DNA of 1,551 nt from Escherichia coli (lineage in GTDB: Bacteria; Pseudomonadota; Gammaproteobacteria; Enterobacterales; Enterobacteriaceae): the NCBI RefSeq assembly GCF_024298765.1, contig NZ_CP101221.1; one strand, written 5' to 3'. Shown piece by piece: positions 1 to 1,551 of this stretch. Numbering within the stretch: the stretch's first letter is position 1; every line of letters begins with the position of its first letter. Position numbers and translations under genes: made by a program. The notes under the pieces are model-generated. The model was not told where the DNA came from. It ran no database searches and worked only from the letters and a program-made list of their open reading frames with translations.

Positions 1-477
1 ATGTTTATTGATTCAGAAAAACGACTGAAACAACTTTCAGATGAGGCAAAGAAAAACACCGAGGATCTCGAAGAAGCAAAGAAGAATTCAAGGTTTACAC
101 AGGTATCCCCAAAAGGTTGGGAACGCGTTCGAGAGCTGCTGAAGGATAGTCAAGGCATATCAGCACTGAAGCTGTACTCATTTTTAGCGGAGCATATCGA
201 TCCTACGTGTGGCGCTGTCGTTGCGGATCAGCAATTCCTAGCTGAAAAACTTGGAGTTAGCAGAAGCACAATTATTCGGTGGCTCAATTACTTAGAATCA
301 AAAAATGCATTAGTTAGAATCCCCGTTGCTGGTAAGGTTTGTGCGTATGCCCTCGATCCACATGAAGTCTGGAAGGGATACAACACTACGAAAAACCATG
401 CAGCGTTTGTCACTAAAACACTGGTCAACAAAGACGGTGATATTCAGCGCCGAATCATGGCCATGTTTTCAAATTGA
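1..477 (+). CDS. repA: Plasmid replication initiator protein, small winged-helix Rep (pKL1 RepA-like / RepL-like), 158 aa
   Basis: Uninterrupted ORF ATG(1-3) to TGA(475-477), the only long ORF with protein-like composition. It has a charged, Lys/Glu-rich N-terminus and a clear helix-turn-helix segment (DQQFLAEKLGVSRSTIIRWLNYLESKNALVR). Size (~18 kDa) and organisation match single-gene small enterobacterial plasmids. No HUH or catalytic-Tyr motifs typical of rolling-circle Reps are evident. If the molecule is circular, an in-frame stop lies at 1510-1512 and a GAGGG Shine-Dalgarno at 1539-1543, about 8 nt before the ATG. Family assignment is from memory, not from a search. Confidence 0.85.
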   Translation: MFIDSEKRLKQLSDEAKKNTEDLEEAKKNSRFTQVSPKGWERVRELLKDSQGISALKLYSFLAEHIDPTCGAVVADQQFLAEKLGVSRSTIIRWLNYLESKNALVRIPVAGKVCAYALDPHEVWKGYNTTKNHAAFVTKTLVNKDGDIQRRIMAMFSN

Positions 478-1032: not shown

Positions 1033-1068
1033 AACCGGAAACCACATTGAGCACGTACGCACTGATGC

Positions 1069-1093
1069 GGGGTGTCGGGGCGAAGCCCTGACC
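1069..1093. repeat. Left copy of perfect 25-bp inverted repeat (GGGGTGTCGGGGCGAAGCCCTGACC)
   Basis: Exact reverse complement of 1298-1322. The two copies are separated by 204 bp (1094-1297), which includes the oriT nic-like segment. Confidence 0.95.
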
Positions 1094-1260
1094 AGACGGC
1101 AAACGGAATATCGTCGCGGGTGACGGTATTACATTTGCACATCCTGTCCCGATTTCTGAGGCGTTTTAGCGGTGAACGGACGGCAAAACCATGATGGAGC
1201 TGTTGAGCGTTGAGAGCGTGAAATCTGGCAAAAATCACGGCTGGCGAGGCTTGTAGCGGA

Positions 1261-1297
1261 ATAAGCCAGTATACACTCCGCTATCGCTACGTGACTG
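1261..1297 (-). other. ColE1/pMB1-type oriT (bom) nic region, orphan (no relaxase in window)
   Basis: The minus strand reads CAGTCACGTAGCGATAGCGGAGTGTATACTGGCTTA, which as I recall it is identical over about 36 nt to the pBR322 bom/nic region. The adjacent repeat copy 1298-1322 matches the pBR322 sequence just upstream (GGGTGTCGGGGCGCAGCCATGACC) with 2 mismatches. The ColE1 MbeA nick is reported within CTGG|CTTA, i.e. between plus-strand 1265 and 1266 here. Sequence and nick position are from memory. Confidence 0.6.
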
Positions 1298-1322
1298 GGT
1301 CAGGGCTTCGCCCCGACACCCC
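1298..1322. repeat. Right copy of perfect 25-bp inverted repeat (GGTCAGGGCTTCGCCCCGACACCCC)
   Basis: Exact reverse complement of 1069-1093, 25/25. Identity stops at both ends (1297 and 1323 do not pair with 1094 and 1068). Confidence 0.95.
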
Positions 1323-1324
1323 AA

Positions 1325-1353
1325 AAGGGCGTTGCGTTGCGCGCAACACCCTT
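1325..1353. repeat. GC-rich palindromic hairpin (core GTTGCGCGCAAC 1336-1347, outer arms AAGGG/CCCTT)
   Basis: Perfect 12-bp palindrome with flanking complementary pentamers, directly seen. It sits between the oriT-like segment and the AT-rich tract. The GTTGC/GCAAC motif recurs at 1331-1335, 1469-1473 and 1479-1483. Confidence 0.8.
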
Positions 1354-1464: not shown

Positions 1465-1479
1465 ACACGCAACAAGGTG

Positions 1480-1508
1480 TTGCACAGATGTGTCATGATG
1501 GCTTAGAT
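1480..1508 (+). promoter_or_regulatory. Candidate repA promoter (-35 TTGCAC 1480-1485, 17-bp spacer, -10 TTAGAT 1503-1508)
   Basis: Sigma70-like hexamers with 17-bp spacing, about 40 bp upstream of the presumed repA start and overlapping palindromic elements. Both hexamers are imperfect (3/6 and 4/6), so this is a weak call. Confidence 0.3.
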
Positions 1509-1536: not shown

Positions 1537-1551
1537 CAGAGGGAAAAAATC
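1537..1551 (+). promoter_or_regulatory. Ribosome-binding site for repA across the presumed circular junction (cAGAGGGaaaaaatc then ATG at 1)
   Basis: Purine-rich GAGGG at 1539-1543 followed by an 8-nt A-rich spacer to the window end; the ATG at position 1 would follow immediately on a circle. Confidence 0.5.

Follow-up and report, generated by a model that had tools for sequence, protein, structure and literature searches.

How a protein of 158 amino acids and 18 kDa, with no nuclease, helicase or ATPase motif, could start the replication of the plasmid that encodes it is the question raised by this locus. The window, namely, the whole stretch of 1,551 nucleotides analysed here, is a complete circular 1.55-kb plasmid of Escherichia coli, of the type known as pKL1 or Col(MG828). 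Many plasmid records from E. coli, Shigella and Klebsiella that are typed as Col(MG828) are 100% identical to it across all 1551 bases, and records of the whole plasmid of this type number in the hundreds. Few natural replicons are smaller than the pKL1-type plasmids, which are very common.

The only protein of the plasmid is RepA of pKL1

The open reading frame at positions 1-477 of the forward strand (ATG to TGA, 158 codons and a stop) encodes a product that is identical in 158 of 158 residues to RepA of pKL1 (NC_002145, 1549 bp), and the RefSeq protein WP_000469298.1 is common to both plasmids. In plasmid size, in gene order, in its Col(MG828) type and in the palindrome upstream of the gene, pKL1 likewise agrees with the window. 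The product is RepA of pKL1 itself, which is already known; no new entity is added here, because descriptions of this protein date from 1997-2003 (Burian et al., 1997, 1999, 2003). The repA gene is reported to be the sole gene carried by the plasmid (PMC3526173). The best reading of the locus is that RepA is the only protein of the plasmid, acting both as replication initiator and as autorepressor. The initiator role, which an earlier sequence-only reading had assigned to this protein, is supported by the identity with pKL1 RepA, and by rep and the region upstream of it being the only elements common to the plasmids of the family.

At the DNA level the window and pKL1 differ at 90 positions. 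Three of these fall in rep, all of them synonymous, two in the right arm of the first repeat unit upstream of rep, and about 80 within a non-coding module at 480-1340. Divergence therefore amounts to 3/477 nt (0.6%) in rep versus about 80/860 nt (about 9%) in the backbone module, and such unevenness, as far as sequence comparison goes, points to either module exchange or very uneven constraint.

On the circular plasmid, the ATG at position 1 has in-frame stops 14-16 codons upstream and, as read from the sequence, a Shine-Dalgarno element, GAGGG, which ends 8 nt before it (1539-1543, forward strand). We take this start codon to be correct because the RepA homologues begin with the same M-[FYL]-I motif. 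A repA promoter, TTGCAC, 18 nt, TAGATT, was read by eye at 1480-1509 on the forward strand, and is proposed only tentatively because a scan of the window with the sigma-70 consensus gave no site at threshold. Overlapping its putative -35 element lies a degenerate extra half-site, TGTTGCA (1478-1484, forward strand), which is a possible site of autorepression.

RepA is predicted to be a single winged helix with conserved flanks

RepA has a mass of 17,960 Da and a pI of 9.2. The AlphaFold2 model obtained from an alignment of 76 sequences (pLDDT 87, pTM 0.72) consists of a long charged N-terminal helix at residues 5-27; a single winged helix at 37-118, made of helices 37-47 and 50-64, a strand at 72-76, helix 2 at 77-84, the recognition helix at 88-100 and the wing at 104-118; and, past the wing, short helices up to residue 138 followed by a C-terminal helix of low confidence. 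The helix-turn-helix (HTH) proper comprises residues 77-100. The sequence-only reading had located a winged HTH at about 75-107, which is where the model places it, although that interval is merely the core of the larger domain. The same reading had described a charged, possibly coiled-coil N-terminus. The charged helix is there, with about half of its residues charged and no tyrosine among them, but the coiled coil finds no support, as a crude heptad test of this helix gave 0.56, against 0.52 ± 0.15 for shuffled sequences.

Conservation in the RepA family is high over residues 28-140 and weak in the N-terminal helix, where the mean top-residue fraction is 0.24. Two conserved segments lie outside the winged helix, namely, KNxxFxQVxxxGW at 28-40, which includes the KNxxFxQV motif of residues 28-36, and PxEVWxxxxxxKxxAAFxTKTL at 120-141. 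What had been dismissed as a short C-terminal tail is in fact a conserved extension (residues 119-140), with P120, W124, K131 and F136 kept in at least 87% of the 76 homologues, and it is not a spacer, since residues 120-141 are conserved.

Regarding catalysis, the claim that RepA has no HUH motif stands: H-x-H is absent from the entire sequence, whose only histidines are at positions 65, 121 and 133, and the protein has no Walker A motif either. The related claim that it has no conserved catalytic tyrosine context fares less well, as Y116, in the wing, is 95% conserved within the RepA family; it is not conserved in RepL, the family with which RepA is compared below. The sole Pfam match above threshold is HTH_36 (PF13730; 34.8 bits, cutoff 25, residues 54-101), a profile that matches 69 of the 76 homologues. 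MarR (20.4 versus 24.6 bits), GntR (18.4 versus 27), DeoR and Crp HTH models gave weak matches, all below their gathering scores and all confined to the HTH region, and the AlphaFold2 model holds no effector domain of the MarR or GntR type. Searches of RepA against Pfam gave no match to Rep_1, Rep_2, Rep_trans or Rep_3, the Rep_1 profile scoring 292 bits with a pBuzz-like Rep used as positive control, and a search against NCBIfam gave nothing meaningful. Fold searches with the RepA model returned only generic winged-helix proteins, with no nuclease fold among them, and sequence searches of the PDB, using both the protein and the family profile, gave matches at the level of the HTH only.

The RepA family is a Gram-negative branch of the RepL superfamily

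Relatives of RepA form 692 clusters at 90% identity, with 351 representatives at 50%, and nearly all of them are carried by contigs of 1-4 kb. In PLSDB, 575 records encode a relative, many of them of 1.1-3 kb with rep as the only annotated gene. Relatives with 42-45% identity are named 'replication/maintenance protein RepL' by NCBI. In Pfam, RepA of pKL1 itself scores 17.7 bits against RepL (PF05732), under the gathering cutoff of 20.3; the profile matches 50 of the 76 homologues at E <= 0.01 (best 3.7e-10), and one homologue, 44.6% identical to RepA, passes the threshold with 21.4 bits.

For direct comparison, the reference RepL was taken from the staphylococcal plasmid pNE131 (242 bits with Pfam RepL), a member of a family of about 158 amino acids. 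BLASTP aligned RepA and RepL over 78 collinear residues (24% identity, E 3e-6), and profile-profile comparison with hhalign paired RepA 27-134 with RepL 33-131 (96.5% probability, E 8.4e-10, 99 columns), including the motifs that flank the winged helix on both sides. On the strength of this profile comparison, the RepA family is a Gram-negative branch of the RepL superfamily, even though it is no formal member of Pfam RepL. The expectation that profile searches would lead to RepL or to a winged-helix initiator family was thus borne out, by HTH_36 above its threshold and by hhalign for RepL, the Pfam RepL score being sub-threshold. Moreover, RepA is not unusually small, as had been thought: its size is typical of the class because staphylococcal RepL is also 158 amino acids long, and the smallest clade of the single-winged-helix initiators has a median length of 185 amino acids (2026 preprint).

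RepL of the pSN2-family plasmids, such as pNE131, resembles RepA in its length of about 158 residues and in a collinear single winged helix without HUH. A motif that precedes the domain (KNxxFxQV in RepA, GNFVKAY in RepL) and the post-wing motif L-D/N-P-x-E are common to the two proteins. The plasmids of both groups are very small, and in both the region before rep holds two half-sites in direct and one in inverted orientation, but RepL has its hosts among Firmicutes and pKL1-type RepA among Enterobacterales; a rolling-circle class, with single-stranded intermediates and a functional ssoA, is a feature listed for the RepL/pSN2 plasmids (PMC5703833). No tyrosine is conserved across the two families in the hhalign alignment, where Y116 of RepA stands opposite a hydrophobic residue, Y42 of RepL opposite S36, and Y63 of RepL opposite F61. 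The N-terminal segment of RepL (residues 1-32, with the invariant Y9 and Y30) falls outside this alignment, and is predicted with low confidence as a beta hairpin, in contrast with the charged helix of RepA.

A conserved arrangement of elements upstream of rep

When the window was compared pair by pair with eight family plasmids, rep and the layout upstream of it were all that the whole set had in common, and replication is therefore encoded by no other part. In 14 non-redundant family members, rep is preceded by the same succession of elements. It starts with a GC-rich hairpin, followed by an AT-rich tract that carries an IHF consensus; next come two units of about 25 bp in tandem, then more half-sites across the promoter region, and finally the Shine-Dalgarno element and the ATG. 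Each of the 25-bp units is partly palindromic, and their half-sites are plasmid-specific.

In the window, the two tandem 25-bp units form a 46-bp near-palindrome at 1419-1464, centred on AACGTT (repeats D1, I2 and I12). It has three exact TGTCGCA half-sites, at 1419, at 1444 and, inverted, at 1458-1464, and a hairpin potential of -18.1 kcal/mol (z = -5.9). The other 13 family plasmids have the same tandem-unit layout with different half-sites. We regard this near-palindrome as the candidate RepA binding site, serving as operator and origin. Half-sites equal in number and arrangement were also noticed before repL of pNE131 (L050), where an AT-rich region at 1846-1958 holds TGTTCTAA half-sites, two direct, with 22-bp spacing, and one inverted.

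Next to the near-palindrome, an AT-rich, and specifically T-rich, tract at 1378-1416 is a candidate DNA-unwinding region. It contains an IHF-like site, TAAGTTGTTGTTT (1383-1395), with one mismatch to the consensus. The IHF consensus is enriched at the equivalent position in the family, being perfect in 4 of 14 members versus 0.25 expected, and 12 of the 14 have it with no more than one mismatch, versus 4.1 expected. No good DnaA box was found in 1340-1551 (none with fewer than one or two mismatches), and an Rfam scan of the window gave no RNAI, RNAII or other family, only a chance miRNA match (E 0.79). According to PMC3832669, the oriV of pKL1 is located upstream of rep and comprises a perfect inverted repeat together with an IHF box and several sites for Rep binding, and the sequence elements at 1378-1464 agree with this layout.

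Origin repeats vary with the N-terminus rather than with the recognition helix

A natural experiment on specificity is provided by the pABU-type RepA P0040, which is identical to the pKL1-type protein at 97 of 101 positions from residue 58 to the end. Helix 3 and the wing are the same in both, as is helix 2 except for E82D; identity falls to 17/26 in residues 32-57 and to 12/31 in residues 1-31. Yet the tandem palindromes of the two types, TGTCGCATCC in pKL1 and TAGCTCACGCATG in pABU, are unrelated. The window has the units TGTCGCATCC-NNN-GTGACACA and TGTCGCATCC-NNN-ATGCGACA, and the pABU type has two copies of TTAGCTCAC-GCATG-TGTGAGCTA; in P0006, a third close relative, the arms are TGTTGCACCC. 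DNA homology between the window and the pABU-type plasmid is 88% across 94-1401 and then breaks, the block at 1495-1535 being the sole piece of the divergent control region that still aligns. Conversely, L038 encodes a RepA of 56% identity in which helix 3 is different, and nevertheless has pKL1-like TGTCGCATC half-sites.

From the pKL1/pABU pair and L038 it follows that the repeats co-vary with residues 1-57 and not with the recognition helix. Origin specificity may therefore be set by the variable N-terminal 57 residues instead of by the canonical recognition helix, a suggestion that comes from sequence covariation. The arms could be read by the N-terminal part; alternatively, the winged helix could recognise a conserved element, for which the AACGTT centre, common to several members, is a candidate. 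The idea that specificity is encoded by a single residue of the recognition helix, at position 92, was considered and rejected, since P0040, an I92 variant, has the repeats of the K92 pABU protein; the pKL1-like half-sites that L038 combines with a different helix 3 also speak against it. The natural chimeras observed here offer a cheap route to mapping the determinant of origin specificity.

Linked to this is the reading that pKL1 RepA might belong, with RepL of staphylococci and probably with the pHW126-like Reps, to one superfamily of single-winged-helix initiators of about 18 kDa with a shared non-HUH chemistry of initiation. Taken jointly, N-terminal origin specificity and a single superfamily with such chemistry make a pair of claims that we hold as doubtful. 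If there is one superfamily, then a single small protein supports both modes, unless the 'rolling-circle' label of the pSN2 family or the 'theta-like' picture of pKL1 is mistaken.

How RepA may initiate replication

Our preferred scheme, to which we give a little better than an even chance, is that RepA is both initiator and autorepressor, and that its oligomer, bound to the palindromes, melts the AT-rich tract for replication in the theta mode. RepA would form an oligomer, a hexamer according to Burian et al. (2003, Biochemistry 42:10282) as cited in PMC3832669, a report to which the sequence-only reading had pointed. The oligomer would occupy the four half-sites of the palindrome at 1419-1464, together with the weaker half-sites at its own promoter. 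Binding of RepA, along with bending by IHF at 1383-1395, would then open the adjoining AT-rich tract, and the helicase, primase and DNA polymerase III of the host would copy the 1.55-kb circle in the theta mode. Copy number would be set by promoter occupancy and by non-productive binding of excess RepA, in line with the 'Rep-only' control by autoregulation and non-productive binding that is summarised in PMC12361487, citing Burian (1999). In this scheme the requirement for RepA, its autoregulation, the hexamer, the IHF box and the binding sites come from the literature on pKL1; the open reading frame, its identity with pKL1 RepA, the fold, the missing catalytic motifs, the homology with RepL and the conserved origin layout were established by our analysis; and origin melting, helicase loading and the theta mode are all three what we infer.

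The initiator reading is favoured by family plasmids of 1.3-3 kb that share only rep and the upstream layout, and by the conserved order of IHF site, AT-rich tract, tandem palindromes and promoter. The theta mode is disfavoured by the lack of a good DnaA box, by the rolling-circle class of RepL, the closest known family, and by the nicking in vitro and mixed intermediates of the RepL-related pHW126-like Reps. Counting against the mechanism as proposed, too, is the lack of covariation between the repeats and the recognition helix.

The Rep_3 initiators (pPS10 RepA, F RepE and R6K pi) are likewise plasmid-encoded and autoregulated, and bind repeats beside an AT-rich tract and an IHF site; however, they have two winged helices in 250-350 amino acids, direct-repeat iterons and a monomer/dimer switch, whereas RepA has one winged helix, two palindromic 25-bp units and a weak fold match to 1hkq. 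The RepA_N initiators (pSK41 and pTZ2162; PDB 4pta and 5kbj) have a single winged helix in about twice the length of RepA and a C-terminal domain that engages host primosome proteins, and they do not match RepA at the sequence level. The pHW126-like Reps (pHW126 Rep, pIGMS31 RepM and pIGRK RepR), from small gammaproteobacterial plasmids, are described by their authors as autoregulatory proteins distantly related to RepL, with a variable N-terminus and a conserved winged HTH without HUH. Their origins consist of a conserved region, four 20-bp direct iterons and an ssi site, unlike the two palindromic units of pKL1, and they are reported as dimers with relaxase activity, where the reports cited for pKL1 RepA speak of a hexamer. 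Evidence for theta and for rolling-circle replication is in conflict for the RepL and pHW126-type relatives of RepA.

The main rival of the preferred scheme is a nick-dependent mode, rolling-circle-like or mixed, in which RepA would bind the large palindrome, perhaps as a cruciform, and make or recruit a strand-specific nick without HUH chemistry, the displaced strand being converted at a hairpin elsewhere on the plasmid. Such a mode stays in play because the RepL relatives are classed that way, and the earlier statement that RepA is unlikely to be a rolling-circle protein is accordingly not secure. The hhalign match to a protein of the same length and collinear build, and the functional ssoA of the RepL/pSN2 plasmids, lend it weight, as do the strong hairpin potential of the 46-bp palindrome, the missing DnaA box and the near-invariance of Y116 in the RepA family. 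Furthermore, relaxation of supercoiled DNA in vitro is described for both pHW126 Rep and RepM of pIGMS31, and pIGMS31 gives both theta and rolling-circle intermediates (bioRxiv 10.1101/2022.12.05.519187). However, the nicking by RepM is non-specific on pUC18 according to its own authors (same preprint), and the pHW126-like Reps are presumed relatives of pKL1 RepA. RepA itself is without HUH or Rep_trans motif and without a nuclease-like fold, it shares zero conserved tyrosines with RepL, and its IHF site, AT-rich tract and autoregulatory repeats are features that theta origins typically have. We therefore judge nick-dependent replication unlikely, albeit a serious contender.

Far less probable is that RepA is mainly a transcription factor and that a transcript made by RNA polymerase at the origin serves as primer, with DNA polymerase I needed for early synthesis, in the manner of ColE1 or pAMbeta1. 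The RepA fold does resemble a transcription regulator, and Rep-activated promoters within the origin are reported for pIGMS31 and pIGRK, but the window has no RNAI, RNAII or other Rfam family, no promoter-like site passes the consensus scan, and the sole plausible promoter is directed away from the AT-rich tract. Hardly credible at all is a RepA that is a mere repressor of the MarR or GntR kind, with replication specified by another element of the plasmid. The weak Pfam matches to the MarR, GntR, DeoR and Crp models that might suggest it are all below gathering scores and cover the HTH only; plasmids down to 1.3 kb conserve nothing beyond rep and its upstream region; the ORFs in 504-1238 belong to an exchangeable cassette missing from the family plasmids L008 and L009; and the literature names RepA as the replication protein (PMC3832669, PMC3526173). 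The outcome that the sequence-only reading had named as fatal to its own proposal, that is, assignment to such a regulator family together with a replication function mapped elsewhere, did not materialise on either count.

Distribution, backbone module and oriT-like segments

Scans of other collections added little to the RepA family. Scanning genome contigs returned mostly identical copies and few new variants, and a viral collection yielded one RepA locus only, L015 (IMGVR_UViG_3300030498_000002; 69% identity), which sits in a 33.7-kb contig classed as viral. Proteins 99-100% identical to RepA of the window were seen at L016-L027, L030 and L033, in assemblies labelled as Flagellimonas, Streptococcus, Clostridium, Micromonospora, Corynebacterium, Bradyrhizobium and others, several of the contigs being near 1x coverage; these odd-genus contigs are most likely E. 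coli plasmid contamination and not a true host range.

The stretch at 473-1327 is a GC-rich non-coding module that is absent from L008 and L009, and that is carried with 89-94% identity by L010 and L011, two plasmids with Reps of only 42-45% identity. Judged from these sequence comparisons, it behaves as an exchangeable cassette, and since it is exchangeable and missing from L008 and L009, no replication function is hidden in it. All reading frames on both of its strands look 'conserved', which indicates conservation at the DNA level, and the hypothetical coding sequence annotated by RefSeq at 921-1142 on the reverse strand is unlikely to be a gene. Of 5,426 complete E. coli genomes, 438 have at least 80% of the module, taken as 480-1345, and 1,862 have shorter pieces of it, mostly as oriT segments on other plasmids.

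Two oriT-like segments lie in the module in inverse orientation, and the plasmid has no relaxase gene. The one at 1068-1162 (forward strand) is about 89% identical to the intergenic DNA directly upstream of nikA in IncI1 plasmids, and the one at 1262-1326 (reverse strand) is about 95% identical to the bom/oriT by rop in ColE1-like plasmids, for example Yersinia pestis pPst; a perfect 25-nt stretch, at 1069-1093 and 1298-1322, is common to both. A similar two-oriT layout has been reported in an unrelated plasmid, pBuzz, for which a B/O plasmid provides mobilisation in trans. Kinship with the pBuzz-like 'rolling-circle' plasmids was considered and discarded, as their Rep is an unrelated Rep_1 protein and only the two-oriT layout is analogous. 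Finally, a 33-nt stretch in a chromosomal CRISPR array of E. coli VL40 (NZ_CM177011.1, 1054654-1054686) is 100% identical to positions 1056-1088 of the window, which overlap the hairpin of the IncI1-type oriT.
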